Shown in pieces: positions 32-62,152 of a DNA stretch of 64,000 nucleotides. The position numbers and the translations under genes were made by a program. The first letter of the stretch is position 1, and every line of letters starts with the position of its first letter. The DNA is taken from assembly GCA_963779755.1 (NCBI GenBank), contig CAVZZO010000001.1:960001-1024000 (forward strand), read 5' to 3'. This DNA is from an uncultured Gemmatimonadales bacterium. Its GTDB lineage: Bacteria > Gemmatimonadota > Gemmatimonadetes > Gemmatimonadales > GWC2-71-9. The notes beneath the pieces were generated by a model. It saw nothing but the letters and a program-made list of their open reading frames with translations, was not told where the DNA came from and did not search any database.

Positions 32-59
32 GCTCACTGCTCACTGCTTACCGCTCACT
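32..59. repeat. 7-mer tandem array (GCTCACT-type), single arm visible
   Basis: GCTCACT GCTCACT GCTTACC GCTCACT, ending 3 nt before ATG 63. Confidence 0.7.
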
Positions 60-62
60 GTC

Positions 63-3000
63 ATGTCCCTCTCCTCACGCTCCATCTCCCGCCCCGTCAC
101 CACCATCGCCGCGCTGCTGGCGCTGGTGCTGGTGGGGATCGTGAGCCTGAGCCGGCTGCCGGTCTCGCTGCTGCCCGATGTGCAGCTACCGGTGCTCACG
201 ATCCGGACGCACTACCCGGGTGCCGCCGCGATGGAGGCGTCTCGCCTCGTCGCCGAGCCGATCGAGGAGGCCATCGGCGCGACGCCCGGCCTGGTGGAGC
301 TGCGCTCGGTGAGCCGAACTGACGAGGTCACCACCACCGCGCGCTTCGCCTGGGGCACCGACATGGCGGCCACGGTGCTGGCCGTGCGCGAGCGGCTGGA
401 CAACGTCCGCAGCCGGCTGCCGGAGAAGGCCGAGCGTCCCACCCTCCTCACCAGCGACCCGGGCCAGCGGCCCATCGCGATGCTGGCCCTCACCGGGGTG
501 GGAGATCTGCGGGTCGTCTCCCGCACGGCCAAGGAGGTCCACGCCCGCCGGCTGGAACAGCTCGACGGTGTCGCCAGCGTGGCGGTGGTCGGTGAGCCCA
601 AGGACGAGATCCGGGTGGAGCTGGACCCCAACCGGATGCGTGCGCTGGGCATCTCGCCCGAGGATGTGAGTCAGGCGCTCCAGGCCGCCAATTGGGGCGC
701 GCCTGGAGGGACGATCAAGCGGGGGCAGTTCCGCTATTCGGTTCGCGCCCTCACCGAGTTCCAGAGCCTGAACGAGATCGGCGAGATACCGGTGGGGCCG
801 GCCGGCAGCGCCCGCTTGCGGGACATCGCCACCGTCACCCTCGCCACCGCCGATCCGCTGACGGTCGTCCGCCTGGACGGCAAGCCCGCCGTTGGCCTGG
901 TGGTCTACAAGGACGCCAACGCCAATACCGTCGCCGTCACCAGGAAGATCGACGAGGCAGTGGCGCAGCTGGAACAGGAGTTCCCCGGCGTCCATCTCAC
1001 CGTGGTGGCGGCGCAAGCCCGTTTCGTGAAGGACGCGCTCACCAACCTGGGCCAGGAGATCATCGCCGGCGGCATCCTTGCCGTGCTGGTGATCATGCTG
1101 TTCCTGCAGGACATCCGCGCGTCGCTCAGCATCGCGCTGGTCGTGCCGCTCTCGGTGCTGGTGGCGCTGGTCGCGCTCCAGGCGCTCCACGTCACCATCA
1201 ATGTCCTCTCGCTCGGCGGCCTGGCACTCGGCGTCGGCATGCTGGTGGACAACGCCATCGTGGTCGCCGAGGCGACTCGGCGCAAACGGGACGAAGGACT
1301 TCCACCGGCGGAGGCGGCACGGGTCGCGACGGACGAAGTCGCGGGGCCGCTCATCGCGGGGACGCTGACAACGCTGCTGGTCTTCGGACCGATCGTCTTC
1401 GTTCGCGGCCTGGCGGCGGCCCTGTTCCGAGATCTGAGTCTGAGCGTGGTGACGGCGGTGGGAGCGTCGCTGCTGTTGGCGCTTACCCTGATGCCCGTCA
1501 TGATGGCGCGGGGCGGTAAGCGGTCAGCAGTAAGCGGTAAGCGGGGCCCCGGTTCCGGCCCGCTCACCGCTCACCGCTCACTGCTGACCAGGTGGGGGCA
1601 TTACCTGTCCGAGGCGTACGAACACGGCGTCGCCTGGTGCCTCGACCACCCCTTACGGGTGTTCGCGGTTTCTCTTGCGGTGGTGCTCGCGACCGCGCTT
1701 CTCGCCTTGCGGCTCCCGCGGGAGATCCTGCCGCAGGTGGATGAGGGTGTGATGGTTGCCGAGGTGAAGCTGCCGGTGGGCACAGCCCTGGAGGAGACCA
1801 CCCGCAACGTGGGCCGTGTGGAAGACGCCGCGGAGGCATTGGGCTCCGCCCGGATCTACAGCCGGGTGGGGGTCGCGACCGATGAGGAAATCCTGGCCGG
1901 GGCCGATCCTGGCACCTCCAGCACGGCACAGATGGTGATTCCCGTACCGCCAGGCGCCGACGCACAGGAGTTCGCCGACCGGCTGCGCGCCAGGGTGCCC
2001 GACCTCGCGGCGGGATCCCTGGCCCTGGATCTGGCGGGACAGTCGGAGTTCGGCAGTCTCATCGGCCGCGAGGGGCGGCTGGTGAGCCTCGAGGTGAGCG
2101 GCCTGGATCAGAAGCAGGCGGAGGTCTGGGCCGATTCCGCCCGGCGCATCGTCGGAGGGATTCACGGGCTGGCCGACGTGCGCGATGCCTACGCCGGCAC
2201 CCAGCCGGTGGTGGAGATCACGCTGGAGCGGCAGCGGATCGCGCTGCGGGGCCTGAGCGTGGAACAGGTGGCGGGCGCCCTCTCGGGCGGGCTCGGGGGC
2301 ATCAAGGCGACCGATTTTCGCGAGACGGACAAGCGCACGCCGATCACCGTCCGGCTGGCGGGCAGCGCCAACGAAGATCTCGACGCCGCGCTCAACACCG
2401 TGGTGCAGGGAGTCCCGGTGGGGCAGCTGGTAACGGTGCATGAGACCCGCGCCCCGATCGAGGTGGTGCGGGTGAACCAGCGCCCGGTGTCCATCGTGGA
2501 AGCGGTGGTGGAACGCGGCGGGACGGCGCGAGCAACCGAAGCGGTCGAGACGGCGCTCGGGTCTCTCGCCACGCCGCCCGGCCTCACCTGGACCGTGACG
2601 GGCGCCGATGTCGAGCAACGCCGCACCACCCACGAACTGAGCCTGGTGGCGGTACTGTCGGTGGCCCTGGTCTTTCTGGTGCTGGCGGGCGAGTTCGCCT
2701 CGTTCACCACGCCGCTGCTCATCATGCTCACCGTGCCGCTGGCCGCCGGCGGCGGGATCGTGATCCTCTGGCTCACGGGCCAGAGCCTCAACGCCGTGTC
2801 GCTCATCGGCATGGTGGTGATGATCGGTATCGCCGACAACGATGCCGTGGTGAAGCTCGATGCCATTCGGCGCTACCGGGCGCAGGGGCTTCCCATCCGC
2901 GAAGCGATAATGAAGGGCGGCCGCGAGCGGCTGCGCGCCATCGCCATGACCTCGCTGACGACGGTCGTCGGCGTCCTGCCGCTCATCGTGGGCATCGGCA

Positions 3001-3209
3001 GCGGCGGCCAGCTCTATCAGCCGCTCGCCGCCGGCATCATCGGCGGGTCCATCTCGGCGACGCTGGTGACCTTCTTTCTCCTTCCCACGGCATATGGAGT
3101 GGTGGAGACGTATAAGGAAAGGAAGGCGGTAATGGCGGTACAGGCGGTAACGGCGGTAGAACCTCATGCCCTGACTCCCTCCCCACGCGGTGGAGAGGGG
3201 GAACCGTGA
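63..3209 (+). CDS. Efflux RND transporter permease subunit (AcrB/MdtB-like)
   Basis: 1048 aa. N-terminal SISRPV plus TM segment, LP..LLP, TM4 GMLVDNAIVV, C-terminal RLRAIAMTSLTT..G.LPL. Two-repeat 12-TM RND layout. Confidence 0.95.
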   Translation: MSLSSRSISRPVTTIAALLALVLVGIVSLSRLPVSLLPDVQLPVLTIRTHYPGAAAMEASRLVAEPIEEAIGATPGLVELRSVSRTDEVTTTARFAWGTDMAATVLAVRERLDNVRSRLPEKAERPTLLTSDPGQRPIAMLALTGVGDLRVVSRTAKEVHARRLEQLDGVASVAVVGEPKDEIRVELDPNRMRALGISPEDVSQALQAANWGAPGGTIKRGQFRYSVRALTEFQSLNEIGEIPVGPAGSARLRDIATVTLATADPLTVVRLDGKPAVGLVVYKDANANTVAVTRKIDEAVAQLEQEFPGVHLTVVAAQARFVKDALTNLGQEIIAGGILAVLVIMLFLQDIRASLSIALVVPLSVLVALVALQALHVTINVLSLGGLALGVGMLVDNAIVVAEATRRKRDEGLPPAEAARVATDEVAGPLIAGTLTTLLVFGPIVFVRGLAAALFRDLSLSVVTAVGASLLLALTLMPVMMARGGKRSAVSGKRGPGSGPLTAHRSLLTRWGHYLSEAYEHGVAWCLDHPLRVFAVSLAVVLATALLALRLPREILPQVDEGVMVAEVKLPVGTALEETTRNVGRVEDAAEALGSARIYSRVGVATDEEILAGADPGTSSTAQMVIPVPPGADAQEFADRLRARVPDLAAGSLALDLAGQSEFGSLIGREGRLVSLEVSGLDQKQAEVWADSARRIVGGIHGLADVRDAYAGTQPVVEITLERQRIALRGLSVEQVAGALSGGLGGIKATDFRETDKRTPITVRLAGSANEDLDAALNTVVQGVPVGQLVTVHETRAPIEVVRVNQRPVSIVEAVVERGGTARATEAVETALGSLATPPGLTWTVTGADVEQRRTTHELSLVAVLSVALVFLVLAGEFASFTTPLLIMLTVPLAAGGGIVILWLTGQSLNAVSLIGMVVMIGIADNDAVVKLDAIRRYRAQGLPIREAIMKGGRERLRAIAMTSLTTVVGVLPLIVGIGSGGQLYQPLAAGIIGGSISATLVTFFLLPTAYGVVETYKERKAVMAVQAVTAVEPHALTPSPRGGEGEP
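1513..1589. repeat. Inverted 7-mer microsatellite inside RND gene 1
   Basis: (GCGGTAA)-like x4, 15-nt spacer, (CCGCTCA)-like x4. Confidence 0.85.
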
Positions 3210-3264
3210 CGACAGCCACGGGCGTGCACCTACCGCCTTTACCACCGCTACCGCCCATACCGCC
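3125..3264. repeat. Inverted 9-mer microsatellite enclosing a REP-like hairpin
   Basis: (GGCGGTANN)x4 at 3125-3160 and (NNTACCGCC)x4 at 3229-3264. Confidence 0.85.
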
Positions 3265-3282
3265 GGTGCGGCGGTCCCGCCC

Positions 3283-6200
3283 ATGATTCAGTGGGCCGCC
3301 CACCGTCCCGCCGTCGTCTGGTCGGTGAGCCTCGCGCTGGTCGCGGCGGGGGCCGTGGCCTTCACCCGGCTGCCGCTCGCCACCCGCCCGGTGGTCGAGC
3401 TGCCGAAGCTCACCGTGAGCGTCTCCTGGCCCGGCGCCTCCGCCGAGCTGGTCGAGTCCTATCTCACCTCACCCATCGAAAGCGCCATCCAGGGCGTCCG
3501 AGGCGTCAAGAAGGTGAGCAGCGAGTCCACCGACGGTTCCGCCAGCCTGGAGGTGGATCTGCAGGAGGGGAGCGACGCGCAGTTTGCCCGTCTGGGGATT
3601 CTCGAGCGGCTGGAGCTTATCCGGAAGGACTTCCCGCCCGGCGCCTCGGCGCCTTCGGTTACCAACTACGTCCCCGACGACCTCGCCGAGCAGCCGCTCC
3701 TTTTCTACATCATCTACGGACCGTACACCTCGGGCACGCTGGCGCGGATGGCGGAGGAGCGGATCCTGCCGCACATCACCGCCGTGGAAGGCGTGGCGGG
3801 CGTGGACCACAGCGGTGGCGCGGAGCAGGCCGTCGCGGTGAGCTACGACGCACAGCGGCTCCGCCAGCTCGGCATTTCCAGTGATGCCGTCGCCCAGGCC
3901 ATTGCCGGCGCGAGGGTCGTGCAGTCGCTGGGCCGGGTGGAGAATGCAGTCAACGTGCTGCCGGTGACGCTACGCGATCAGCCCCACGCCATCGAGGATC
4001 TGGGGCAGCTCCCGGTCCGCGGGCTGGCGGGACAGGTCTACCCCCTGCGCGAGCTGGCCAGCATCCGGATGGAAGAGGACTCGCGCGACCAATTCTACCG
4101 GGTGAACGGCGAGCCGGCGGTGGCGCTCCGCATCGCTCGGCTTCCCGGTGCCGATGCCATCCGCACCGCCGCGCGGGTCCGGCAGGCTATGATGATGCTG
4201 CAGCCTCAGCTGTTGCCGGGCGTCCGTCTCGAGCTGCAAACCGATGAGAGCGTGGAACTCGGCACGCAGCTGCGCGATCTCCTGCTGCGCGGGAGCATCG
4301 CCTTCGCGGCGGTGATGCTGGTGCTGGCCTCGGCGCTGCGGAACGCCCGGTCGATCGCCCTGGTGATGGGGAGCGCCGCGGTGGCCATCGCCGGAACCGC
4401 GCTCGGGCTCTATCTCCTCAGGATTCCCGCCAACCTGCTGACGCTGGCCGGCCTGGGGATGGGCATCGGCATCCTGGTCCAGAATGGGCTCATTGTGGTG
4501 GCCCGGCTCCGTACCATGCCGGACACGCCGGAGGGCCGCGCCGAGGCCAGCCGGCGCATCCTGCCGGCGGTGGTGGGCGCCACGCTCACTACGGCGGTTG
4601 TGCTGATTCCTTTCCTTTATTTGCAGGGAAACGCGCGGGCCGCCTTCACCCCCTTTGCGGTGGCCTTCGTGCTGGCCCTGGCCTGGTCGGTGGGGGCCTC
4701 GGTGATCATGATCCCGGCGCTGGGCGCGGGGCACGGGATGAATACCCGGCAGTGGCCCAGGCTGCAGCGGGCCTATTTGCGGATCATGGTGCGGCTGCTG
4801 CGCTGGCGCTGGGCCACGCTCGTCCTGGCAGCGGCGGCGGTGGGGGTGCTCGCCTGGGGCTTCGTCAAGAAGGTGCCCCGCAGCAACTGGGGCAACTGGT
4901 TCGGCCAGCGCACCACACTCGGCGCCAGCCTCAGTTTCCCCCGCGGGTCCGACCCGGCCAGTCTCGACCAGGGCATGCGCGATCTGGAGTCGGTGGTGCA
5001 GGGGCAGCCCGGCGTGGAGCAGGTGACGGCTCAGGGCTCCGGCGGAGAGGCGTATCTCCGCGTGGTCTTCACCCATGCGTCGGAGTTCGGGCCGCAGCCG
5101 TACATCCTGCAGGAAGCGCTCACCCAGCGGGCCATCCTGATCGGCGGGGCCACCGTTTCGGTGTCCGGGCGCGGCCCCGGATTCTACTCCGGCGGCGGCA
5201 TGGGCGGGTCCACCTATCGTATCAAGGTGCTGGGCTATTCCTTCTCCGGGGTGGAACAGCTGGCGTACGACCTCAAGAAGCGGCTGGAACGCATTCCGCG
5301 GGTACAGGATGTGGACGCCAACGCCGCCGGGTTCTATGGCAGAGAGAAGTCCTATCTGGTGACGCTGGATCCCGACCGCGAGGCACTGGCCCGCCATGGC
5401 ATCACGGCCCGGCAGTTCGCCTCGGCGCTGGGACGCGCGGTGGCGGGGCAGGTGGGGGGAACCCGGATCGAGATCGGCGGCCGCGAGCTGCCGGTGAACG
5501 TCAAGGCGAAGGGCGCGCGGGAGCGCACCCTGGACCAGCTCCGCTCCTCGTTCATCGCCAACAGGGACGGTGCCCCGGTGCGGGTGAGCGATCTGGCCGC
5601 GGTGGACGAGCAGGAGGCGCTCTCGCGGATCAGCCGGGAAGACCAACAGTACGTGCGCATCGTGAGCTACGATTTCCGCGGGCCTCCCAAACTGGCGGAG
5701 CGGACGCACGAGGCGTTCATGAAGACCATCTCCGTACCCCCGGGCTATACCGTGGGCGATGACGAATGGGACTGGGGCACGGACAGCAGCACCAGAGGCC
5801 TGTGGCTGGTGTTCGGCATCGGCATTCTGCTGGTGATCCTCTCCGTGGCCATGGTGTTCGATTCCGCCTGGGCAGCGGCCATGGTGTTCCTGAGCCTGCC
5901 GATCGCCCTGGGCGGCAGCGTGGCAGCTTTCTGGATCGCCGGCGCCGCGTTCGGCCGGGAGGCGGCGGTGGGGGTGATACTGGTGGTCGGCCTGGCGGTG
6001 AACCAGAGCATTCTGCTGGTGGATGGGGCGCTCGGAAGGCGGTCGGCTAAGGCGGCAAGACGGCAGGACGGCAGGACGGCAGGGGGTGAGCCGGTGGCAT
6101 CCTACCGCCGTACCGCCGTACCGCCGTACCGCCGGGGGTTGGGCGGCCGGGACGTGATCGCCGCCTGCCGCGACCGGGCGGGAACCATCCTGCTGGTCAC

Positions 6201-6405
6201 CTTCGTCACGCTGGCCAGCCTGCTGCCGTTGGCCGTCGGCACGAAGACGGACGAGCTCTTCGGCGGGATTGCGCTGGCGACGGTGGGCGGGACCATCGCG
6301 GGGACGATCGGCGCGCTGTTCGTGGTGCCGGCGATGGTGGTGGGGCGGAGGAGGAAGAACAGCGATCCCTCCAATCCCCAATCCCCCGCCCATCACTCCT
6401 TCTAA
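3283..6405 (+). CDS. Second efflux RND transporter permease subunit (divergent partner)
   Basis: RND layout (WPGASAELVE..LT.PIE, large periplasmic loops, 12 TM). ATG 3283 (MIQWAAHRP) preferred because the upstream extension is repeat-derived. Confidence 0.9.
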   Translation: MIQWAAHRPAVVWSVSLALVAAGAVAFTRLPLATRPVVELPKLTVSVSWPGASAELVESYLTSPIESAIQGVRGVKKVSSESTDGSASLEVDLQEGSDAQFARLGILERLELIRKDFPPGASAPSVTNYVPDDLAEQPLLFYIIYGPYTSGTLARMAEERILPHITAVEGVAGVDHSGGAEQAVAVSYDAQRLRQLGISSDAVAQAIAGARVVQSLGRVENAVNVLPVTLRDQPHAIEDLGQLPVRGLAGQVYPLRELASIRMEEDSRDQFYRVNGEPAVALRIARLPGADAIRTAARVRQAMMMLQPQLLPGVRLELQTDESVELGTQLRDLLLRGSIAFAAVMLVLASALRNARSIALVMGSAAVAIAGTALGLYLLRIPANLLTLAGLGMGIGILVQNGLIVVARLRTMPDTPEGRAEASRRILPAVVGATLTTAVVLIPFLYLQGNARAAFTPFAVAFVLALAWSVGASVIMIPALGAGHGMNTRQWPRLQRAYLRIMVRLLRWRWATLVLAAAAVGVLAWGFVKKVPRSNWGNWFGQRTTLGASLSFPRGSDPASLDQGMRDLESVVQGQPGVEQVTAQGSGGEAYLRVVFTHASEFGPQPYILQEALTQRAILIGGATVSVSGRGPGFYSGGGMGGSTYRIKVLGYSFSGVEQLAYDLKKRLERIPRVQDVDANAAGFYGREKSYLVTLDPDREALARHGITARQFASALGRAVAGQVGGTRIEIGGRELPVNVKAKGARERTLDQLRSSFIANRDGAPVRVSDLAAVDEQEALSRISREDQQYVRIVSYDFRGPPKLAERTHEAFMKTISVPPGYTVGDDEWDWGTDSSTRGLWLVFGIGILLVILSVAMVFDSAWAAAMVFLSLPIALGGSVAAFWIAGAAFGREAAVGVILVVGLAVNQSILLVDGALGRRSAKAARRQDGRTAGGEPVASYRRTAVPPYRRGLGGRDVIAACRDRAGTILLVTFVTLASLLPLAVGTKTDELFGGIALATVGGTIAGTIGALFVVPAMVVGRRRKNSDPSNPQSPAHHSF
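6051..6133. repeat. Inverted 8-mer microsatellite inside RND gene 2
   Basis: (GACGGCAG)-like x4 and (CGTACCGC)-like x4. Confidence 0.85.
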
Positions 6406-9071: not shown

Positions 9072-9115
9072 CGTGAGACGTGAGGGGCACGACGCTTCAC
9101 GTCTTGCGGCTCACC
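9072..9115. repeat. Degenerate inverted 7-mer repeat after gyrA
   Basis: CGTGAGA CGTGAGG ... CTTCACG TCTTGCG GCTCACC. Confidence 0.6.
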
Positions 9116-9128
9116 TACTGGGAGCACC

Positions 9129-11533: not shown

Positions 11534-11597
11534 GGGAATGGGGAAACGGGAATGGGGAAAGGCCCATACGTTCCCGGTTCCCTTTTCCCTTTTCCCG
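11534..11597. repeat. Inverted 7-mer microsatellite (GGGAANN)4/(TTCCCNN)4
   Basis: Arms at 11534-11561 and 11571-11597, between the cyclase and kinase genes. Confidence 0.85.
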
Positions 11598-12780: not shown

Positions 12781-12877
12781 GGCCGCAGGACGGCAGGCGA
12801 GGGCCGGCGGCGGTCCCCACCGGGAGCGGGGCGGTTCAACTTGCCGTCCTGCCGTCTTGCCGTCCTGCCGTCCTGCC
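12781..12877. repeat. 8-mer microsatellite (CYTGCCGT)~5 with a short complementary arm
   Basis: 12840-12877 uses the reverse complement of the unit at 6051-6083. Partner GCAGGACGGCAGG near 12785. Confidence 0.8.
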
Positions 12878-12879: not shown

Positions 12880-13980
12880 ATGAAGCGCTATCCCGCATTC
12901 GATCCCCCCGAGTACGTCAACTGGACGCCCGATCCCGAACTGGTTCGCGGCTTCGCCGAGACGGTCGAACGGGACGAGGCGCGCCGCGGGCTGGTCGAGC
13001 GGCTCGACCAGCCGGCATTGCTGGAGCTCTATCGCCGGCTGCTCCGCGCCCGGCTTCATGACATCGGGCTCAAGCGCTGGGTGCGCCAGGGTGTCATCTC
13101 CAAGGCCTGGCTGGGAACGGGTGAGGAGGCGACCACCGTGGGCCCGGTCTACGCGCTCGATCCGGAACGCGATTACGTCGCGCCCATGATCCGGAACGCG
13201 TCCGCCTGCTGCGACATGGGTATGCCGCTGGCCGACATGTTCCGCGGCTATCTTGGCACCGAGAATTCTCCCTCCCGGGGCCGCGACATCCATATCGGCG
13301 CGCCGGCGCATCACGTGATCTCGCCCGTCTCGCCCGTGGGCCACATGGTGCCGGTGATGCTCGGCGTGGCGATGGGCGCCCGGATGCGGGGGGAGGAGGC
13401 CGTGGCGCTGACCTGGGTGGGCGACGGGACCACCAAGGCGGGTGTGACGCACGAAGGCCTCAATTTCGCGGCCGTACGCCGCGCGCCGGTGGTCTACATT
13501 ATCGAAAACAATCAGGTGGCGCTCGGCACCCGGCTGCATCAGCATCACCGGGCCGATACCTTTACCGGCTGGCCCGCCGCCTACGGGGTCGAGGGCTGGA
13601 GCTTCGACGGCAACAACGTGCTGGATGCCTATGCCGCGACCGCACTGGCCGTCGAACGCTGCCGGGCGGGCAGCGGGCCGGCCCTGCTCCTGGCCGAAAC
13701 CTTCCGTATGGGCGGCCACGCGACGCACGACGAACGGGAAGCCCGGGAGACCTTTCCCGACGAGCTGTTCCAGGCCTGGGGCAAACGCGACCCGATCGGG
13801 CTGTACGAGGAATACCTCAAGGCCCGCGGGATCGACGCCGGCTCGCTGCAGGAGATCGAGGATAGCGTGACCGGTGAGGTAGACCAGGCGGCCGAGGAAG
13901 CCCTGGCCGACCGGGAGCGGATGCCGGCGCCGGAAACGGCGCTGCGCGGCGTCTATGCGGAGAAGCAAGGTGAGGGGTAA
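12880..13980 (+). CDS. TPP-dependent 2-oxoacid dehydrogenase E1 alpha subunit
   Basis: GDG...ENN TPP motif, FRMGGHATHD, DPI. ATG 12880 chosen because the upstream extension is 8-mer repeat. Confidence 0.88.
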   Translation: MKRYPAFDPPEYVNWTPDPELVRGFAETVERDEARRGLVERLDQPALLELYRRLLRARLHDIGLKRWVRQGVISKAWLGTGEEATTVGPVYALDPERDYVAPMIRNASACCDMGMPLADMFRGYLGTENSPSRGRDIHIGAPAHHVISPVSPVGHMVPVMLGVAMGARMRGEEAVALTWVGDGTTKAGVTHEGLNFAAVRRAPVVYIIENNQVALGTRLHQHHRADTFTGWPAAYGVEGWSFDGNNVLDAYAATALAVERCRAGSGPALLLAETFRMGGHATHDEREARETFPDELFQAWGKRDPIGLYEEYLKARGIDAGSLQEIEDSVTGEVDQAAEEALADRERMPAPETALRGVYAEKQGEG

Positions 13981-14013
13981 GGGGTAGGCCGTCGTCACAC
14001 CTCACCCCTCACC
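13969..14013. repeat. Inverted 7-mer microsatellite (GGTGAGG)/(CCTCACC)
   Basis: Three units per arm. The E1 alpha stop codon lies in the left arm. Confidence 0.75.
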
Positions 14014-20886: not shown

Positions 20887-21057
20887 GGTCAAAGGTCAAA
20901 GGTCAAAGGTCAAATTCCGGATGTTTCCCTGAGGCAGGTGTACCTTCTCGCCTTCGACCTTCGACCTTCGACCTTCGACCTTCGACCTTCGACCTTCGAC
21001 CTTCGACCTTCGACCTTCGACCTTCGACCTTCGACCTTCGACCTTCGACCTTCGACC
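20887..21057. repeat. Inverted 7-mer microsatellite (GGTCAAA)4 ... (CCTTCGA)15
   Basis: Four perfect copies at 20887-20914 and 15 perfect copies at 20951-21055, between convergent genes. Confidence 0.97.
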
Positions 21058-39821: not shown

Positions 39822-39836
39822 GGCACAGATATAAAG

Positions 39837-39864
39837 GGGAAACAGGAAAGGGGAAGCGGGAAGG
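39837..39864. repeat. 7-mer array (GGGAANN)4
   Basis: GGGAAAC AGGAAAG GGGAAGC GGGAAGG, directly abutting ATG 39865. Confidence 0.75.
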
Positions 39865-51420: not shown

Positions 51421-51509
51421 GGGGGAAACACATGCTGGGAAGATAAGGCGGCGCGCCTGGTTGCCTGCCGAACCGGCGGCGGGTCAACGGGTTGGCAACC
51501 CCGGCGGCA

Positions 51510-52889
51510 TCATTCCTGGCGGCGGCGGGTCGCTTCCCGGACGGCAGCGATGGCAAACCAGATGCAGAGGCCCCCCACCGCGTAGGCCATGGTCCGGGGC
51601 AGGAGCAGGAAGAACCCCGCCAGGACGATCAGCACCAGGGCGGCGGGGCCGTAGATGGAGCGGCGGGCTCCGGTGATCACCGTCCACAGGGTGACCACCG
51701 CCCGGCGCCGCATTTCGCGGCGGCTGCGGGAGTGCCGTACGGGGCGCTCATCCGGCGCCTGGCGGGCCAGGCGGGCCGGGATGACGCGCTGGAGGCGGGC
51801 CGGGGCCCGCCGCTCCCCCCGTACCACCTCCAGGCTGCTGGAGATGTCCCGCCGGAACTGCTCTTCCATCGCCTGGGCGAAAGCGGGATCGTCGGTAAGG
51901 ACGTCGAGCTCGTAGTTCCCCAGCAGGCTGGAGGCATTGAGATTGCTGGATCCGATACGGGACCAGTGCCCGTCCGCCACCATCGTCTTGGCGTGGAGCA
52001 TGGGGCCTTCCCACTCGTAGATCCGCACCCCGGCACGCAGGAGCTGGCGATAGCCTACCCGGGTAAGGTTGCGCACCAGGGGAAGGTCGCTGGAACCGGG
52101 GACCAGCAGGCGGATATCGAGCCCCTCGCGGGCGGCATCGAGGAAGGCCTGGAACAGCCTGGGTGGGGGCACCATGTAGGCGTCGGTGATCCAGAGGCGG
52201 GTCGCGCTGCTGGCCGCGAGGATCTCCAGCACCTTGTAGGCCCGCTCCCGGCCGGGCCGGCCGGCGATCACCCGAATCGCGGCATTTCCCGCCGACGGCA
52301 CATCCGCCTGGTCGGGGAGGGCCTCGCCGCTCAGGCGCTGCCACAGACGGCCGAACGCCCGGTCGAGGGCGGTGGCCGCAGGCCCCGCGATCCGGAGCGC
52401 GGTATCCCGCCAGGGCAGTATGCCCCGTTGCTCGTTGCCCACCCATTCGTCGCCGATGCAGAGCCCCCCGGTCACGGCCACGCGGCCGTCGGCCACGACC
52501 AGCTTGCGGTGGTCGCGCGAGAGATTGGCGAAGGTGTCGACCAGGCGCGGAGGATTGAAGGCATGGATCCGCACGCCGGCCTGGCGCAGGTAGCGCCAGA
52601 GTTTCCAGCGGGTAGTGAAGGAGCCCACCCAGTCGTAGATGAGCCGGACCTCCACGCCTGCCCGGGCCCGGGCGGCCAGCGCCTCGGCGAAGCGCCAGCC
52701 GGTGTGGTCGGAGCGGAAGATGTAGTTCTCGAAGTGGATCCGGTGTCGGGCCTCGCCGATCATCTCCAGCATGGCCCCGTAGGTGGCCGGGCCGTTGAGC
52801 AGGAGGTCCACCCGGTTGCCGGGAATGGGCCGGGTGCCCGCCGCGCGGTCCAGGGCGTGATTGAGCGAGGCGATCTCGGCGGCGGCCAT
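51510..52889 (-). CDS. cls: Cardiolipin synthase / phospholipase D family
   Basis: Two HKD motifs (HRKLVVAD, HAKTMVAD), WRDT, GSSNLN. C-terminal TM pair. Confidence 0.85.
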   Translation of the reverse strand: MAAAEIASLNHALDRAAGTRPIPGNRVDLLLNGPATYGAMLEMIGEARHRIHFENYIFRSDHTGWRFAEALAARARAGVEVRLIYDWVGSFTTRWKLWRYLRQAGVRIHAFNPPRLVDTFANLSRDHRKLVVADGRVAVTGGLCIGDEWVGNEQRGILPWRDTALRIAGPAATALDRAFGRLWQRLSGEALPDQADVPSAGNAAIRVIAGRPGRERAYKVLEILAASSATRLWITDAYMVPPPRLFQAFLDAAREGLDIRLLVPGSSDLPLVRNLTRVGYRQLLRAGVRIYEWEGPMLHAKTMVADGHWSRIGSSNLNASSLLGNYELDVLTDDPAFAQAMEEQFRRDISSSLEVVRGERRAPARLQRVIPARLARQAPDERPVRHSRSRREMRRRAVVTLWTVITGARRSIYGPAALVLIVLAGFFLLLPRTMAYAVGGLCIWFAIAAVREATRRRQE

Positions 52890-52904
52890 GCTGGAAGGTA
52901 CTGC

Positions 52905-53507
52905 CTACCCCGCGGCGCCTCCGAGCCCCAGCCGCGCTTCATGGGGACGCAGCGCCTCCAGCACGAAGGCGACATGCTCCTCCAGAGGAACGCCGATCTC
53001 CCGGGCGCCCTGCAGCACCTCCTCGCGGTTCACCCCCCGGGCAAAGGCCTTGTCCTTCAGCTTCTTCTTTACGCTTTTCACTTCGAGATCGGCCAGGCTG
53101 CGGGAGGGCCGGACCAGGGCGCAAGCGACCAGGAACCCGCACAGCTCGTCCACGCTGAACAGCGCCCGGGCCATGGGGGTGTCGCGAGCCACGCCGGTAT
53201 AGTGGGCATGACCCAGGATGGCCCGCTGCCACGGCTCGGGAAAGCCCTGGGCGGCCAGGACCCGCACGCCTTCACTGGGATGCTCTTCGGCCGGGGAGTG
53301 CCGTTCGTTGGGATAGCGTTCGTAATCGAAGTCGTGGAGCAGGCCGACGATGCCCCAGGCGTCCGGGTCTTCGCCGGCCCGCGCCGCCATGGCACGCATG
53401 GCGAGCTCGACGGCGTACATGTGGCGCCGGAGGCTTTCGGACGCGGTGTATTCGTGCATCAGCGCCAGAGCGCGGTCGCGGGTCCAGGCGGTGGCAGGGC
53501 TGGGCAT
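52905..53507 (-). CDS. HD-domain phosphohydrolase (HDIG-like)
   Basis: RRH..AVE, GLLHDFDYE, VDELCG, KKKLKDKAFA. Confidence 0.9.
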   Translation of the reverse strand: MPSPATAWTRDRALALMHEYTASESLRRHMYAVELAMRAMAARAGEDPDAWGIVGLLHDFDYERYPNERHSPAEEHPSEGVRVLAAQGFPEPWQRAILGHAHYTGVARDTPMARALFSVDELCGFLVACALVRPSRSLADLEVKSVKKKLKDKAFARGVNREEVLQGAREIGVPLEEHVAFVLEALRPHEARLGLGGAAG

Positions 53508-53530
53508 GGGGAAAAGGTAACGGGGAGGCA

Positions 53531-53598
53531 GCAAGGGATCAGGGACCAGGCACCAGGGACGTTTGCCCCTGATGCCTGGTCCCTGGTGCCTGATGCCC
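53531..53598. repeat. Inverted 7-mer microsatellite (ACCAGGS)/(SCCTGRT)
   Basis: AGGGACCAGGCACCAGGG pairs with CCCTGATGCCTGGTCCCT (one mismatch). GTTT loop. Confidence 0.85.
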
Positions 53599-53603
53599 GA
53601 AGC

Positions 53604-54866
53604 CTACGGAATGGTGATGGCTGGGATCGTGGTTCCGTAGGTGCTGTTCACTGCCGCGATCATGGCGTTGGCGACGTATTCGTGCGCCAGTGCGGTCGGA
53701 TGTACGCCGTCCAGCGAGAACAGCGGCCCGAAGGTCACCGGCCCCGGATTGAGCGGATTGCTGAGGGCGGCGGTGATGTCCGGGAAGGGTGGGATGAGCT
53801 GGGCCAGGGCTGCCAGATTGGCGTTGATGTCCACGTAGGCCCAGCCGTGGCTGGTGGCCTGCTGCTGGATATAGGCGTTGTAGCCCGCCACCGCCGCATG
53901 CAGACCCGCCAGCTCGGCGCCGGTCACCACTTCGTTGTCGTTGGTGCAGTCGATCGTTACCACCGAGCCGGGATCCATCAGCGCCTGCTGTGCCTTGGAC
54001 AGGCCGATAGGCCAGGGAATGCTGGTGGTGTCGCCCACCGAGGTGGGAACGGCCGCCGCCGGTGCGCAGCTGATATCCACGTTCAGGTTGACCGGGAACA
54101 GCGGGTTCAGCGGGATGCCGGGGCACAGGCCGGTCTTGAGGCACCAGTAGATCGAACCCTTGGAGGCGTAGGGGATCACCGCCACGTCGGCGACGCTGAA
54201 GAGCACGGCACTGGCCCCCTCCGAGGCGATGCTGTCGACGATCTCTCCGTACTCCGATTCGAAGGCCGTCTCGGGCGTGACCAGCGCCGGATTGCCGGGA
54301 TTGCTCAGGCTGGTGAGCGAGCCCAGCACATCGTTGTTGCCGATCCAGAGCGACACGAACGTGGGGTTCTGGGCCTGCATGGCCTCGACCTGTGTCTTGC
54401 CCCCCAGGAAGAAGAAGGTCAGGGCATTGGACGCGGAGACCGGCATGCCGAAGTTGGTCAGGAGTTCCAGCACCCGGGCGCCGGGAACCGCGACGTTCTG
54501 GACGTAGGGTGGTGCTTCCGGGCTCGCCGCCCGCAGGTCGCAGCTCGCGGCGGTGCCGCCCCCGACCCGGGCCTGGGTGACGTTATTGGTGAAGGGCGGG
54601 GGACAGCCCCGGCCCTGGAGGTCGGGGATGACGAATGGTGCCCCGGCCTGCCCGGCGAAGAGCACGGCGTAGCTCTCCCGCTGGGTGCTGTCGTTGATGC
54701 CGGCCGACTGGAAGCCGGCGGTGATACTGTTGCCCATGGAGACGTAGTGGGCGAACAGCTCGCCGCCGCTCGGCGGCGCGGGCGGTTGCAATGATTCGTC
54801 CGAATGGCACCCGGCCAGCAGCGGAAGCGCCAGCGCCAGGGATGCCGCAAGTACGGAGTACTTCAT
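53604..54866 (-). CDS. SGNH/GDSL lipase-esterase lipoprotein
   Basis: LAGC lipobox, GNSITAG, NVAVPG, WIGNND, SLDGVHP. Confidence 0.87.
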   Translation of the reverse strand: MKYSVLAASLALALPLLAGCHSDESLQPPAPPSGGELFAHYVSMGNSITAGFQSAGINDSTQRESYAVLFAGQAGAPFVIPDLQGRGCPPPFTNNVTQARVGGGTAASCDLRAASPEAPPYVQNVAVPGARVLELLTNFGMPVSASNALTFFFLGGKTQVEAMQAQNPTFVSLWIGNNDVLGSLTSLSNPGNPALVTPETAFESEYGEIVDSIASEGASAVLFSVADVAVIPYASKGSIYWCLKTGLCPGIPLNPLFPVNLNVDISCAPAAAVPTSVGDTTSIPWPIGLSKAQQALMDPGSVVTIDCTNDNEVVTGAELAGLHAAVAGYNAYIQQQATSHGWAYVDINANLAALAQLIPPFPDITAALSNPLNPGPVTFGPLFSLDGVHPTALAHEYVANAMIAAVNSTYGTTIPAITIP

Positions 54867-54880
54867 AGGGCGAGTCCCCA

Positions 54881-56396: not shown

Positions 56397-56816
56397 CTAA
56401 TGGCCGTAGGAAGGGCCGGCCTGGGCCGGGGCCTGAGCGGCGGTGAGGGGGACCTTGGCCGCCCGGGCGCCATCCATCAGGATCTCGAAATGATACCGGC
56501 CGGGGCGCGGCAGCGGGACATCGAAAACCAGGACGGCGCCCGCCTCCAGCTCGGTCACGCCGGCCACCGGCTCGCCGAACTGGACCGTTCCTTCCCCGCC
56601 CAGCAACTCGGCTCCCGCCTCATCGACGAAGCGGATGCGGATCGAATGACTGCCGATCTCGGTGCGCCGGCCCCGCACCCGGATCACCAGGTGGGTCCTC
56701 CCGTGCACCGCCGGGAAGCTGGCCACCCAGACGTGCTGGAAGATGCCGATGATCGACAGCTTCCCCTGCTGATCGATCAGGGCGTGGTCGGCGAGAACGG
56801 CGAAGTCGAGTTCCAT
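56397..56816 (-). CDS. Conserved hypothetical protein (DUF6941-like)
   Basis: LADHA..D..GKLSIIGIF, PG.Y.FEI. Confidence 0.6.
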   Translation of the reverse strand: MELDFAVLADHALIDQQGKLSIIGIFQHVWVASFPAVHGRTHLVIRVRGRRTEIGSHSIRIRFVDEAGAELLGGEGTVQFGEPVAGVTELEAGAVLVFDVPLPRPGRYHFEILMDGARAAKVPLTAAQAPAQAGPSYGH

Positions 56817-56830
56817 GGTTTCAGGCCGGA

Positions 56831-56919
56831 CCTCGACCCCCTCCACCCTCCCGGCTCCGTCGACCTTTCGGAGTGGTCGAGCGGGTCGAGCGGGTCGAGC
56901 GGGTCGAGGAGGTCGAGGA
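56831..56919. repeat. 9-mer microsatellite (GGTCGAGSR)5 with a degenerate complementary arm
   Basis: Five units at 56875-56919. CCTCGACCC CCTCCACCC at 56831-56848. Confidence 0.8.
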
Positions 56920-56924
56920 TAGCA

Positions 56925-57380
56925 TCAATCCTCGGAAGAGACCCTGATCGAGTTGACCACGTCGCCCTGTTTGATCTGCTGCACCACGTCCATGCCGTCG
57001 GTGACCTGGCCGAAGACGGTGTGCACACCGTCGAGGTGGCGCTGGGGGGCGTGACAGATAAAGAACTGGCTGCCGCCCGTGTCCTTGCCGGCATGAGCCA
57101 TGGAAAGGGTGCCGGCCACATGCTTGTGCACGTTCCGGTCGGTTTCGCACTTGATGGTGTATCCCGGGCCGCCGCTCCCCACCCGCGGGTTCTGTGGATC
57201 GCGGGAGAGCGGGTCGCCGCCCTGGATGACGAAATTGGGAATTACCCGGTGAAAGCGGGTCCCGTCGTAGAAATCGCTGTTAGCGAGTTTCTCGAAATTG
57301 GCGACGGTTCCCGGCGCTTCTTCATCATATAGCTCAGCCTGGATGATACCCCTGCTGGTGTCGATCGTGGCGTGTTTCAT
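56925..57380 (-). CDS. Cyclophilin-type peptidyl-prolyl isomerase
   Basis: [41 protein letters not shown]. Confidence 0.96.
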
Positions 57381-60067: not shown

Positions 60068-62119
60068 TCATTGCCGCAGTCGCTGTGCCAGCTCGGCATC
60101 GGTGGAGGCCGGGAGCTCGCAGGCGGCGCCGATGCAGACGTAGGCACGGACGTCGGCCGCTGAGCGCACCAGGGACGCCACGGCCGGCGCCGGCGTGATC
60201 GAGCCGGCATTCTCCGGGGTGATCCGCTGGACGATGCGGCGGGGCCGGAAGGTGGCGAGGGCGCGGCGGTGCATGCGCCGGGCCTCTTCCTCTTCGGCCG
60301 GGCCGGTAATCACCAGATGTACCGGCGGATGGAGAAAGGAATCCAGCGCGAGGAGCCAGGTTGCGCCATGGAGGCCCAGGTCGTCGGCCCGGCCGGCGAA
60401 GGCCTCGAGCAGCGCGCGCTGGCGATCGCGCCAGCGCGCGACGCCGGTGTGCTCCGCCAGCCGCCACAGGACCATGCCGGCCACCCCGTTCGCAGACGGC
60501 GTGGGCGCGTCCTGCACCGGCTTGGCCCGGGTCGGGAGCAGGCCTTCGCCCCCGCGGTCCCGCGCCTGGTCGTAGAAGCCGCCGGCCTGCTCGTCCCAGT
60601 AGTCTCGCAGGACTCGCTCCATCAGCCCTTCCGCCCAGGCGAGCCACTCGCGGCGGCCCGTCGCCTCCCAGGCGGCAATGCCGGCGGCGGCGCACTGCAC
60701 CTGATCTTCCAGCAGTCCGTCGGGCCCTCCGGCTACGTGGGGAACGGCATCGGGTTCGGGCGATTCCGCCCGGATGCGCTCCAGGGTACGCAGCGCATGG
60801 GTCCCGGCCCAGTCATCGTCCAGCACGGCGCCCGCTTCCAGCAGCGCCGATGCCATCATGGCATTCCAGGCGGTGTAGCGGGTGCGGTCCACCTCGGGCG
60901 CGGGCCGCTGCCGGCGGGCGGCGCGGAGCTTGTCCGTGGCGGAGTCCAGAATCTGGACGACCCGTTCGAGCGGCAGCTGAAGGCGCTCCGCGATGCGTTC
61001 CGGCGATTCCGCCAGAAACAGGACGTTCTTCCCGGGATGATGGCGCATCTCGCCCGCGGTGCCGATATCATAGCGCAGCGCCGCGACCTCCAGCTCGTCT
61101 CCGCTCAGGGTCTCCGCCGCCTCATCGAGCGTCCAGGTGAAGTAGTCGCCGTCGTCGTCCAGCCCGACGTCCGCATCCTGGCTGGCGCCGTAGCCGCCGT
61201 CGGGGTCGGCCAGCACCTCGCGCACCCAGCGGACGATACCGCGGGCCGCCGACTCGCAGGCGGGGGTACGGAAAACGCTCCAGGCATGGAGGTAGACCCG
61301 CAGCAGCTCGCTGTTGTCGTAGGACATCTTCTCGAAGTGGGGGACGATCCACCGGGCATCGGTGCTGTAGCGGTGGAACCCGCCGCCCAACTGATCGTGA
61401 ATCCCGCCCGCGGCCATGGCAATGAGGGTGCCGTCGATCATATCGCGCAGGGCGGGCGCCGGGGCATCCAGCCAGCGGCCCAGCAGCAGCTCGATGGCCG
61501 CCGGATGAGGGAATTTCGGCGCCGCGCCGAACCCGCCGTGTTTCGCATCGTAAACCCGGGCCATGCCCGCGACGGCGCGCTCCAGCAGTGCCGGATCCAG
61601 CGGGCCGGGCGCCGTCTCGTTCATGGCGCCGGCCAGGATGCGCCGGACCGCGCCGGCCTGGGCGGCAAGCTCCTCCCGCTTGTCCTGGAATGCCCGGAGC
61701 ACCGAGTCGAGCACGGCCCGAAAACCGGGCCGGCCATACTGGCCGTCGGGAGGGAAATAGGTCCCGCCGAAGAACACGTCGCCTTCGGGGGTAAGCAAGG
61801 CGGTCAGCGGCCAGCCCCCCTGTCCGGTCAGGGCCTGAACGGCGCGCTGGTAGCGGGCGTCCACGTCCGGCCGTTCGTCGCGGTCCACCTTGATGCAGAC
61901 GAAGTGCCGGTTGAGGAACTCGGCCAGGCCCGGATCTTCGTAGGATTCCCGGTCCATGACGTGGCACCAGTGGCACCAGACCGCACCCACATCGAGGAGC
62001 ACCGGTCGGTCGGTCCGTTGTGCCTCGGCGAAGGCCTCCTCGCTCCAGGGATGCCAGTGGACCGGCTGGTGGGCGGCCGAGCGCAGGTAGGGGGAACGGG
62101 CTGAGGCGAGGAGGTTCAT
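60068..62119 (-). CDS. Thioredoxin-domain protein, YyaL/SPATA20 family
   Basis: N.L....SPYL..AAHQPV.W, WCHWCHVM, KVDRDERPDVD, GGWPLT, PHFEKM. Confidence 0.93.
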   Translation of the reverse strand: MNLLASARSPYLRSAAHQPVHWHPWSEEAFAEAQRTDRPVLLDVGAVWCHWCHVMDRESYEDPGLAEFLNRHFVCIKVDRDERPDVDARYQRAVQALTGQGGWPLTALLTPEGDVFFGGTYFPPDGQYGRPGFRAVLDSVLRAFQDKREELAAQAGAVRRILAGAMNETAPGPLDPALLERAVAGMARVYDAKHGGFGAAPKFPHPAAIELLLGRWLDAPAPALRDMIDGTLIAMAAGGIHDQLGGGFHRYSTDARWIVPHFEKMSYDNSELLRVYLHAWSVFRTPACESAARGIVRWVREVLADPDGGYGASQDADVGLDDDGDYFTWTLDEAAETLSGDELEVAALRYDIGTAGEMRHHPGKNVLFLAESPERIAERLQLPLERVVQILDSATDKLRAARRQRPAPEVDRTRYTAWNAMMASALLEAGAVLDDDWAGTHALRTLERIRAESPEPDAVPHVAGGPDGLLEDQVQCAAAGIAAWEATGRREWLAWAEGLMERVLRDYWDEQAGGFYDQARDRGGEGLLPTRAKPVQDAPTPSANGVAGMVLWRLAEHTGVARWRDRQRALLEAFAGRADDLGLHGATWLLALDSFLHPPVHLVITGPAEEEEARRMHRRALATFRPRRIVQRITPENAGSITPAPAVASLVRSAADVRAYVCIGAACELPASTDAELAQRLRQ

Positions 62120-62122
62120 AAT

Positions 62123-62152
62123 AGAGTGGGCAGAATGGGCAGAGTGGGCAGA
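62123..62152. repeat. 9-mer array (AGARTGGGC)3
   Basis: Fills the nth-yyaL gap. ATGGGCAGAGTGGGC also occurs at 27231-27245. Confidence 0.75.

Follow-up and report, generated by a model that had tools for sequence, protein, structure and literature searches.

What are the short tandem arrays, many with complementary arms, that sit at gene boundaries throughout a 64,000-nt stretch of bacterial DNA? The stretch, called the window below, comes from an uncultured Gemmatimonadales bacterium (Gemmatimonadota, GWC2-71-9; GCA_963779755.1, contig CAVZZO010000001.1, positions 960,001 to 1,024,000, forward strand). A preliminary description reported about 15 arrays in it, and this observation is confirmed: when Tandem Repeats Finder (TRF) is run over the window, all but one of the 15 positions have a row on them or no more than 65 nt away. 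TRF rows were also counted genome-wide, with an order-5 Markov copy of the genome (4.23 Mb) as the null. After overlaps are merged, the window holds 13 strong arrays of period 7-9 and score at least 40; the Markov copy yields 15 such rows per 4.23 Mb, or 0.23 expected per 64 kb, which bears out an excess over a composition-matched null. With a score of at least 50, the genome has 203, 130, and 87 rows of periods 7, 8, and 9, and the copy has none of any period. The arrays are real tandem repeats and not products of chance.

Arrays and arms in the window

Most arrays had been said to carry a complementary second arm. This applies to 10 of the 15 sites (32, 1513, 3125, 6051, 11534, 12781, 13969, 20887, 53531, and 56831); there is a single arm at 23313, 39837, and 62123, a non-complementary second array at 25148, and only a short imperfect hairpin at 9072. 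Similarly, the reported contact with start or stop codons stands for the 13 sites that lie within 25 nt of one and fails for 1513 and 6051, which are in frame inside RND pump genes. The description of the units as unrelated was overstated, since several share a core by reading: the 7-, 8-, and 9-mers at 32, 1513, 3123, and 6103 all hold GCGGTA or CGGCGGTA.

The first element is a C-rich 7-mer arm (32..60, 4.1 copies) that ends 2 nt ahead of the ATG at 63, with its G-rich 7-mer partner (4.4 copies) just outside the window at -28..2. Within the RND pump gene that follows (63..3209), an inverted 7-mer pair at 1513..1589 (plus strand, 4.6 and 4.3 copies, 15-nt loop, folding z -3.2) is read in frame as part of the cytoplasmic loop between TM6 and TM7. 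The inverted 9-mer pair at 3123..3265 (4.0 and 3.8 copies, z -6.5) forms the C-terminal tail of the same pump with its first arm, and the stop (3207-3209) falls within its 71-nt loop, which also contains a separate small hairpin. A second RND pump (3190..6405) carries an 8-mer pair at 6053..6134 (plus strand, 3.9 and 4.0 copies, z -2.5), complementary at 6 of 8 positions per unit and translated in frame in the TM10-TM11 loop; the Pfam match ends at the array, and the frame and TM11-12 go on.

The weak, short imperfect hairpin at 9072..9117, with about two units per side, was identified by reading, has no TRF row, and lies 4 nt past the gyrA stop. An inverted 7-mer pair at 11534..11596 (z -4.5) begins 7 nt past the stop at 11527. 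At 12781..12877 (z -3.3), a degenerate G arm of about two units is followed by an 8-mer C arm (4.5 copies) that ends 2 nt ahead of the ATG at 12880, and the TAA stop of that gene (12880..13980) is contained in the first arm of a short inverted 7-mer pair at 13969..14013 (about 2.7 units each, z -5.3). The asymmetric inverted 7-mer pair at 20887..21057 (4.0 and 15.3 copies) has a convergent gene on each side, with the stops at distances of 15 and 17 nt, and its arms are one transition apart per unit. A weak single 7-mer array without a partner (23313..23329, 2.4 copies) lies 24 nt upstream of the start of the minus-strand gene 22204..23289.

At 25148..25230, a G-rich 7-mer array (3.7 copies) precedes a C-rich 7-mer array (4.1 copies) of unrelated unit; the polarity is kept, the arms are non-complementary, and no hairpin forms (z +2.3). 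A single purine-rich 7-mer array (39833..39855, 3.3 copies) occupies a divergent spacer and stops 9 nt short of the ATG at 39865. The inverted 7-mer pair at 53534..53605 (z -7.3) fills the whole 69-nt spacer between two minus-strand genes (start 53534, stop 53604). Two minus-strand genes (start 56846, stop 56925) also flank the 9-mer element at 56831..56917, which has the opposite, C-first polarity with a degenerate C arm and a G arm of 4.8 copies, and a single 9-mer array (62123..62152, 3.3 copies) takes up the whole 33-nt spacer between two more (start 62119, stop 62153). Seven of the eight window elements that were folded give long periodic stems (z -2.5 to -7.3).

Abundance, polarity, and placement across the genome

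The recurrence of the same unit at distant loci, claimed for the window, holds genome-wide. About 589 array loci are spread over the 4.2 Mb, and 206 canonical units cover 774 arrays, the commonest accounting for 72, 40, 33, and 32 arrays. A single unit can recur at as many as 72 loci whose loops and flanks are unrelated, and neighboring loci are alike barely more often than random loci (11.4% vs 7.4%). By our own gene calls, which are home-made, contain errors, and underlie both the intergenic share and the gene-end distances, 507 of the 774 arrays lie wholly and another 119 partly in intergenic DNA, which makes up 12.5% of the genome.

In paired and single arrays alike, the G-rich strand points away from the nearest gene. 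Complementary 7/8-mer pairs in the genome are G-first in 87 cases and C-first in one; adjacent arrays of unrelated units (gap at most 120 nt) are G-then-C in 40 cases and C-then-G in two. Where a single array lies 20 nt or less from a gene end, the G strand points away in 131 cases and toward the gene in 25 (79:18 at stops, 52:7 at starts), and 249 partnerless 7/8-mer arrays obey the same rule. The 73 metagenome loci from relatives include 16 G-then-C and no C-then-G arrangements. Polarity is independent of pairing and of transcription.

In co-directional spacers (n = 78), the median distance of the pair is 4 nt to the preceding stop and 27.5 nt to the start that follows; 60 pairs are nearer the stop and 18 nearer the start (p 6e-5). 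Inverted pairs are rarer in divergent spacers (9/434) than in convergent ones (23/393, p 0.006), and arrays are present in 59 of the 434 divergent spacers. Arrays also lie inside proteins: in 35 called genes, 7/8-mer arrays lie over 45 nt away from either end, and 19 of the 20 such genes that were scanned have a clear Pfam architecture. They encode, among others, a DnaE-type polymerase, UvrA, SMC, CarB, Lhr, Ffh, an E2 acyltransferase, NAD synthase, and three Ser/Thr kinases. In the several proteins compared by position, the array falls between domain matches.

Turnover among relatives and competing explanations

Presence/absence polymorphism, on which the earlier interpretation depended, is seen at orthologous junctions. 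Of 37 full-length orthologues of the pump, 15 contain arrays in the TM6-TM7 loop; the units and periods differ, and the distribution is scattered over the tree. Two sister sequences (L049 and L051, branches 0.03-0.04) share an 8-mer that is present as 12 direct copies in one and as 4.9 copies plus an inverted arm of 4 in the other. Three other window genes were compared at their junctions: arrays, of other units, are present there in 10-30% of relatives and absent from 70-90%.

We consider fast-turnover selfish or neutral DNA that fills dispensable sequence, rather than a code, to be the most likely reading, with a probability of about 0.4. Arrays would lengthen by replication slippage, and the second arm would probably arise by fold-back (template-switch) copying of the G-rich array: a nascent strand ending in such an array may fold back and copy itself, which would produce the G-then-C order without a dedicated enzyme. 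The arrays would then persist wherever additional bases are tolerated, and hairpins in mRNA would be a consequence and not a purpose. Four observations count against this reading. Local slippage does not account for the spread of one unit over so many loci; arm complementarity that is kept while sequence changes could mean selection on the stem; the convergent over divergent bias would be expected if the pairs acted at the 3' ends of transcripts; and a gradient of unit age along the arms, which would give the direction of growth, was not found.

It is possible, if on balance unlikely, that the elements act in RNA, as long stems in operon mRNAs serving as RNase III sites, 3'-end stabilizers, or non-canonical terminators or insulators between cistrons. 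The 23S rRNA intervening sequences, which have a related gene-in-a-stem layout, are cut by RNase III and lend this idea some weight, as do the periodic stems of the window, the position of pairs directly past stop codons, and their preference for convergent spacers. Arm complementarity also covaries across genomes: at four-helix-bundle loci from 30 genomes, 23 of 27 arm pairs are at least 80% complementary, compared with 5.6% of cross-locus pairs. Most such repeats in Xanthomonas are transcribed, as far as the excerpted text of Rehm et al. (PMC4692102) goes. However, arm mismatches compatible with G-U wobble lack a sense-strand bias (28 sense vs 30 antisense), about one-quarter of G-then-C neighbors are non-complementary, and the pair at 25148..25230 does not fold. 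The polarity shared by the partnerless arrays, the arrays in divergent spacers and coding linkers, and the array-free state of most relatives at orthologous sites likewise argue against a function in RNA. No T-run was found 3' of the stems, and none of the 21 terminator-like sites in positions 1-40000 coincides with an element. The proposed RNA-structure code is thus not demonstrated, given the unbiased mismatches and the unfoldable arm pairs.

Another possible explanation, which we rate as equally unlikely on balance, is that empty hairpins are remnants of, or landing sites for, small gene cassettes with PF05635 (four-helix-bundle) or GxxExxY cargo, moved or written by some trans-acting system. 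Six-frame profile searches of the whole genome matched PF05635 nine times, TIGR04256 12 times, DUF559 twice, and Y1_Tnp three times, all outside the window, which agrees with the earlier statement that no four-helix-bundle or GxxExxY-type gene is present there. Arms that enclose an ORF do occur elsewhere in the genome: seven or eight of the nine PF05635 matches, and some GxxExxY genes, have a G-rich array on one flank and a C-rich array on the other. Among 30 PF05635 loci in 30 genomes of the phylum, an array is present on one side in all 30 and on both sides in 27, with 21 G-then-C and 3 C-then-G. These cassettes resemble the window elements in arm architecture, periods, and G-then-C polarity, and in this genome their arm units belong to families that are common in empty elements too; their loops are 420-555 nt, compared with gene-less loops of 6-72 nt in the 15 window elements. 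Literature searches brought up no publication connecting this gene family with tandem arrays. At the site upstream of ffh, an array lies no more than 130 nt from the ffh start in 12 of 30 relatives (the nearest array ends 36-71 nt ahead of that start in most of the 12), with the cargo gene between arms in three, empty pairs in two, and other or single arrays in seven. This alternation between arms with a gene, arms alone, single arms, and nothing fits the part of the preliminary description that proposed empty footprints. In two close relatives (Ffh 93% identical), the cargo at this site is 62% identical and the arm units are unrelated.

Against the cassettes, the orthologous flanks of three window genes, 173 in all, hold no cargo gene, and neither do 92 loci around the pump. 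Across 15 relatives, the number of PF05635 copies is no predictor of 7/8-mer array density (rho 0.19, p 0.49): genomes with 8-9 copies hold 0-1.2 arrays per 100 kb, and two genomes (G134 and G086) have arrays although PF05635 gives no match in them even at E 0.01. For each cassette there are more than 10 empty elements, and gene remnants in cargo-less loops amount to one broken PF05635 match. The genome has no RVT_1 reverse transcriptase, and none of its three HUH transposase (Y1_Tnp) genes is array-flanked, so the suggested trans-acting writer or inserter finds no backing here. As a whole, the earlier interpretation is partly supported: the excess and the polymorphism are real, and neither of its mechanisms is established.

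Relation to known repeat systems

Cyanobacterial STRR sequences are short tandem heptamers, mostly intergenic and with several families per genome, as here; they differ in phylum and units. Rickettsia palindromic elements are hairpin repeats of roughly 100-150 nt, copies of a conserved consensus, that can lie in frame in coding genes and be translated as an extra surface or linker peptide, whereas here the architecture alone is common and units, loops, and lengths vary by site. REP/BIME sequences with RAYT transposases are likewise abundant intergenic palindromic repeats near gene 3' ends, but the present arrays lack a conserved palindrome and the Y1_Tnp genes of this genome stand apart from them. 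Borg tandem repeats evolve rapidly, have independent origins, and also make disordered protein regions (PMC9879509); they are direct repeats of an archaeal extrachromosomal element, and the abstract mentions neither inverted arms nor G-strand polarity.

A close parallel is known from Xanthomonas campestris/axonopodis and Nostoc, for which an earlier study had set out both the inverted pairs and the strand rule (Rehm et al. 2015, PMC4692102). The excerpted text of that paper describes tandem G-rich 7-nt units, typically of about four copies, that are 89-93% intergenic, lie within 50 bp of a stop if on the sense strand and ahead of an ORF if on the antisense strand, form 70-75 convergent (inverted) pairs per Xanthomonas genome, and are not kept at the same genes by two species; it interprets them as G-quadruplex (G4) elements and does not take up how they arise or turn over. 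That a periodic nucleic-acid-binding protein reads the units here, or that a G4 tunes the adjacent gene, as proposed for those genomes, is very improbable: position and strand follow the rule reported for the G4-forming repeats, one strand of the units is G-rich, and the G strand carries SD-like tetramers somewhat more often than shuffled units do (42% vs 31%), but 206 units would demand many readers, a canonical G4 is unlikely for many abundant units because by reading they have no run of three G, arrays are translated within proteins, and orthologous sites are mostly empty in relatives.

As far as that excerpt goes, Xanthomonas and Nostoc have one dominant unit per genome and the same polarity rule; this genome, unlike them, has 206 canonical units of three periods, many of them without G runs, about 589 array loci, translated linker arrays, and arms around small genes. 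New here are the unit families, dozens in number and of periods 7, 8, and 9, the translated arrays within linkers of housekeeping proteins, the variation among relatives at orthologous sites, which may be filled, filled differently, or empty, and the ffh-upstream site, outside the window, where the same arms occur with or without a four-helix-bundle gene. One unit named in the excerpt, GGGAATC (PMC4692102), also occurs in the window at 25148.

Abundance and placement of the arrays

Tandem arrays of 7-9-nt units are far more frequent in this genome (G000; 4.23 Mb, 68.5% G+C, four contigs, with the window at G000:C1:960001-1024000 on contig C1) than its composition predicts, as the preliminary description had supposed. 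Tandem Repeats Finder (TRF) returned 67 rows in the window. With overlaps merged, the window holds 13 arrays of period 7-9 and score ≥40, against 0.23 per 64 kb in an order-5 Markov copy of the genome, which yielded 15 such rows over 4.23 Mb. At a score ≥50, the genome-wide rows for periods 7, 8, and 9 number 203, 130, and 87, and the Markov copy has none for any of the three periods. Genome-wide, 774 non-overlapping arrays (score ≥40) make up 589 loci, one every 7 kb or so, and are built from 206 canonical units, the commonest of which account for 72, 40, 33, and 32 arrays. The density of 7/8-mer arrays is 12.6 per 100 kb here vs 0-8.8 across 15 relatives. We saw no local spread, as a unit is common to 28 of 246 neighbouring loci (<3 kb) vs 7.4% of random pairs, with no distance dependence, and stop codons within units are only mildly enriched (29% vs 23.5%, G strand). 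Two 8-mer arrays 5234 nt apart, at C1:9256-9343 and C1:14490-14577, are identical, flanks included, so that either about 5 kb has been duplicated or the element is a repeated one; the array at C1:14490-14577 lies within a called ORF.

At 14 of the 15 window sites first listed, a TRF row lies at or beside the position; the exception, 9072, is a short imperfect hairpin only, and 23313 is weak. The second complementary arm that had been described as usual is present at 10 of the 15. The partner arm of site 32 sits just upstream of the window, the array next to 25148 has an unrelated unit and gives no fold (z +2.3), and sites 23313, 39837, and 62123 are single arms. When folded as RNA, seven of eight elements form long periodic stems (z −2.5 to −7.3). 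The statement that nearly all sites touch a start or stop codon stands for 13 of the 15, which lie ≤25 nt from one in our own gene calls, and fails for the arrays at 1513-1589 and 6053-6134, which are inside genes. Both are in frame in AcrB-type RND pump genes, the first in the TM6-TM7 cytoplasmic loop of 63..3209 and the second in the TM10-TM11 cytoplasmic loop of 3190..6405; the frames are open through the arrays and the downstream transmembrane segments are intact. Four-helix-bundle, GxxExxY, DUF559, and HUH transposase genes are all absent from the window, as had been said, and PF05635 (the four-helix-bundle family of 23S rRNA intervening sequences, IVP) has no match in the window and none among its 47 ORFs. 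Rfam at gathering thresholds and a tRNA scan each gave no matches. Two ORFs called by a first gene caller, 51492..54794 and 56400..57332, were discarded as shadow ORFs, and the second version of the calls was used instead. On the minus strand, 27560-31888 is an open frame of 1442 aa in which HAMP and MCP signalling domains are confined to the C-terminal end; its true extent is uncertain because the second gene caller splits it.

Intergenic DNA is 12.5% of the genome in our gene calls; of the 774 arrays, 507 lie in it completely and a further 119 in part. Spacers with arrays number 326 among 1847 co-directional, 86 among 393 convergent, and 59 among 434 divergent ones, and for inverted pairs the counts are 77, 23, and 9, respectively (convergent vs divergent, p 0.006). 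In 78 co-directional spacers, the median distance of the pair is 4 nt to the stop on its upstream side and 27.5 nt to the start that follows (p 6e-5). Deep inside genes, 7/8-mer arrays are found in 35 called genes, 20 of which we scanned; 19 of these 20 have clear domain architectures. Hosts include genes for a DnaE-type polymerase, UvrA, SMC, CarB, Lhr, Ffh, an E2 acyltransferase, NAD synthase, and three Ser/Thr kinases, and in those several hosts whose array and domain positions were compared, the array lies between domain matches. The DnaE-type polymerase gene (G000:C1:19972-23223; PHP, pol III alpha, and finger domains) holds three in-frame 8-mer arrays, at relative positions 0.12, 0.79, and 0.87. 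The arrays also bear on annotation: they extend or cut back ORF ends and add 10-30 residues to the linkers of such proteins as RND pumps, UvrA, SMC, CarB, and Ffh; they probably also break short-read assemblies.

Polarity of the arms and their turnover in relatives

Genome-wide, 139 neighbouring arrays are inverted copies (≤2 mismatches per unit), and transitions make up 95 of the 134 arm-to-arm mismatches. In complementary 7-/8-mer pairs, the G-rich arm comes first 87 times and the C-rich arm once; one 9-mer family, of which the element at window position 56831 is a member, has the reverse order. The polarity is independent of pairing. Where two neighbouring arrays ≤120 nt apart have unrelated units, the order is G-then-C in 40 cases vs C-then-G in 2, and single 7/8-mer arrays ≤20 nt from a gene end have the G-rich strand directed away from the gene 131 times and toward it 25 times (79:18 at stops, 52:7 at starts). 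Among 73 metagenome loci of relatives, 16 are G-then-C and none C-then-G. In nine pairs with a common unit, neither the loops (6-54 nt) nor the flanks are related, and no target-site duplication was seen; loops and flanks are likewise unrelated in four other unit families, and such pairs are therefore not copies of one element. In this they are unlike MITEs, which have a common internal sequence, terminal inverted repeats, and target-site duplications. No gradient of unit age runs along the arms, as last-unit mismatch to the arm consensus is 0.067 at inner vs 0.066 at outer ends. The flank past the outer arm end is slightly more unit-like, an excess for which base composition could account.

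A metagenome scan with the pump protein gave those 73 loci, the best 76% identical, and the genome collection searched has no second genome of the genus, so all comparisons of filled and empty sites are between genera. A search of public reads gave no RNA run with this genome; the only runs found, three soil metagenomes from one study, had shares of 0.13, 0.07, and 0.00, and their short contigs miss the arrays. Orthologous junctions differ in presence or absence of arrays and in their units at the pump loop, at the pump flanks, and at three other window genes, which bears out the polymorphism anticipated at the outset. In the pump TM6-TM7 loop, arrays are present in 15 of the 37 full-length orthologues compared (34 distinct), and their units and periods differ; loops with arrays are in most cases 114-162 nt and those without 84-135 nt, thus not much longer. 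Filled loops are scattered over the tree. One six-member clade (support 100) is filled throughout with three different units, and the sisters L049 and L051 (branches 0.03-0.04) have a common 8-mer, as 12 direct copies in one and 4.9 plus 4 inverted in the other. Of 42 loci, 16 have an array ≤150 nt upstream of the pump gene, and of 38, 17 have one at the gene's 3′ junction. For the three other genes, leaving out this genome's own locus, arrays occur in 3 of 28 relatives upstream and 4 of 26 downstream of the E1 dehydrogenase gene, in 8 of 29 downstream of the saccharopine dehydrogenase gene, and in 6 of 29 upstream of the DUF255 thioredoxin gene. The units at these flanks are unlike those of this genome, the pairs are mostly G-then-C with none C-then-G, and a cargo gene is present at 0 of 173 of them. 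Like Rickettsia palindromic elements, the arrays can lie inside intact ORFs and be translated; unlike those elements, which have one conserved consensus, their units vary between hosts and between orthologues.

Genes enclosed by arms

Copies with a gene between the arms, envisaged in the preliminary description, exist elsewhere in the genome: seven or eight of the nine PF05635 matches have a G-rich array on one side and a C-rich array on the other, and 9- or 8-mer arms enclose some of the GxxExxY genes. The window elements match the PF05635 cassettes in arm architecture and polarity and differ in the absence of the enclosed gene. Of 151 genomes sampled from the phylum, 96 have PF05635. At 30 PF05635 loci from 30 genomes, an array flanks the gene on at least one side in all 30 and on both sides in 27, with 21 in G-then-C and 3 in C-then-G order. 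Arms are ≥80% complementary at 23 of 27 loci vs 5.6% of cross-locus pairs, and left arms of different genomes are as dissimilar as cross-locus pairs (median best ungapped identity 0.53 for both). In 12 of 30 relatives, an array lies ≤130 nt ahead of the ffh start; three of these sites (this genome included) have the PF05635 gene between arms, two have paired arms with nothing between them, and the remaining seven have single arrays or others. At this site in L216 (genome G172) and L217 (G016), whose Ffh proteins are 93% identical, the cargo is 62% identical and the arm units are unrelated, which implies very fast evolution or cassette replacement.

Two four-helix-bundle cassettes adjoin at G000:C3:1584081-1585573, each with its own arms (8-mers and 7-mers). 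Nine of the 12 genomic GxxExxY (TIGR04256) matches, several truncated, fall within 17 kb at G000:C3:1489117-1506472, and two DUF559 genes are at C3:1459909-1463962, about 25 kb from this cluster. A separate 9-mer family of about 50 arrays, with the core ATCTGYG, occurs in dense clusters and as pairs whose arms are about 110-120 nt apart, at G000:C1:709200-710900 and 726300-728300 (outside the window) and C3:1465409-1465957; one of its pairs brackets a GxxExxY gene.

Origin of the arrays and relation to known repeats

An excess of heptamer tandem repeats in bacterial genomes has been known for decades, and we know of no mechanism for it. The arrays described here behave like DNA that expands wherever it is tolerated and turns over quickly, with a polarity fixed at the DNA level. 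Slippage with fold-back copying of a G-rich 3′ end would give the G-then-C order and is, in our judgement, the most economical source. It leaves unexplained the occurrence of one unit at dozens of distant loci, the joint change of both arms, and the depletion of pairs in divergent spacers. The latter two keep alive a function at the RNA level, as processing or terminator stems, against which stand the G-U-compatible arm mismatches, equally frequent on the two strands (28 sense vs 30 antisense), and the lack of overlap with terminator-like sites, 0 of 21 of which coincide with an element in window positions 1-40000; unlike intrinsic (Rho-independent) terminators, the elements have no T run after their second arms, by reading. 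Derivation from gene cassettes, as footprints or landing sites, is kept alive by the one unit at dozens of loci and the joint arm change; against it, array density is unrelated to PF05635 copy number in the 15 relatives (53-80 kb sampled each; rho 0.19, p 0.49), one of which has a single copy at E 1.1e-10, and 7/8-mer arrays are present in two genomes without a PF05635 match at E 0.01.

On a broader reading, which we consider unlikely, at roughly one chance in five, a single system would comprise the empty hairpins, the in-frame linker inserts, and the cassettes with four-helix-bundle or GxxExxY cargo, as an undescribed class of bacterial element that architecture, not sequence, defines. The class would be any G-rich 7-9-nt array laid 5′ to 3′ toward the centre from both sides, and its arms would be rewritten together while cargo is gained and lost between them. 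If this were true, one DNA-level mechanism would link the 23S rRNA intervening sequences with the heptamer repeats of bacteria, which have long lacked an explanation.

Rehm et al. 2015 (PMC4692102) state the same strand rule for G-rich heptamer repeats of Xanthomonas and Nostoc and give 70-75 convergent pairs per Xanthomonas genome; the repeat class, the inverted pairs, and the strand rule are already in print for two other phyla. Like those heptamers, the tandem 7-nt units here are far above expectation, mostly intergenic, and scarcer as inverted pairs between divergent ORFs, and their G-rich strand is sense just after stops and antisense just before starts. Unlike them, periods 8 and 9 occur too, and many units replace the one consensus per genome with its G3 runs and G-quadruplex potential; by reading, the abundant units at 1513, 20887, and 53568 have no G3 runs. 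We found no published description of many unit families with three periods, of translated linker arrays, of site persistence with unit replacement, or of a link between arrays and PF05635 and GxxExxY cassettes. This genome stands at an extreme in how frequent its arrays are, how many unit families and periods (three) they have, and how strict their polarity is, and it therefore makes testable whether the polarity comes from DNA manufacture or RNA action, how fast both arms are replaced, and what relation, if any, the enclosed small four-helix-bundle genes have to the arms.

The preliminary description also entertained a trans-acting system that writes or inserts the repeats. Against this, PF00078 (RVT_1) has no match at E ≤ 0.01 in six frames of the 97%-complete genome, unlike telomerase-like or DGR-like repeats made by a retroelement, and none of the three Y1_Tnp (HUH) matches in the genome has a 7-9-nt array within 350 nt, unlike REP/BIME elements, whose RAYT (HUH/Y1 transposase) gene is flanked by its own repeats. 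A break-and-add origin of the G-then-C order, akin to telomere healing, was rejected, since there is no enzyme (no reverse transcriptase) and the arrays hug gene ends, not random breaks.

A divergent Y1_Tnp transposase gene (77 bits), without flanking 7-9-nt arrays, lies 6.5 kb upstream of the window at G000:C1:953128-953475, and it differs from two near-identical IS200-type copies elsewhere in the genome.
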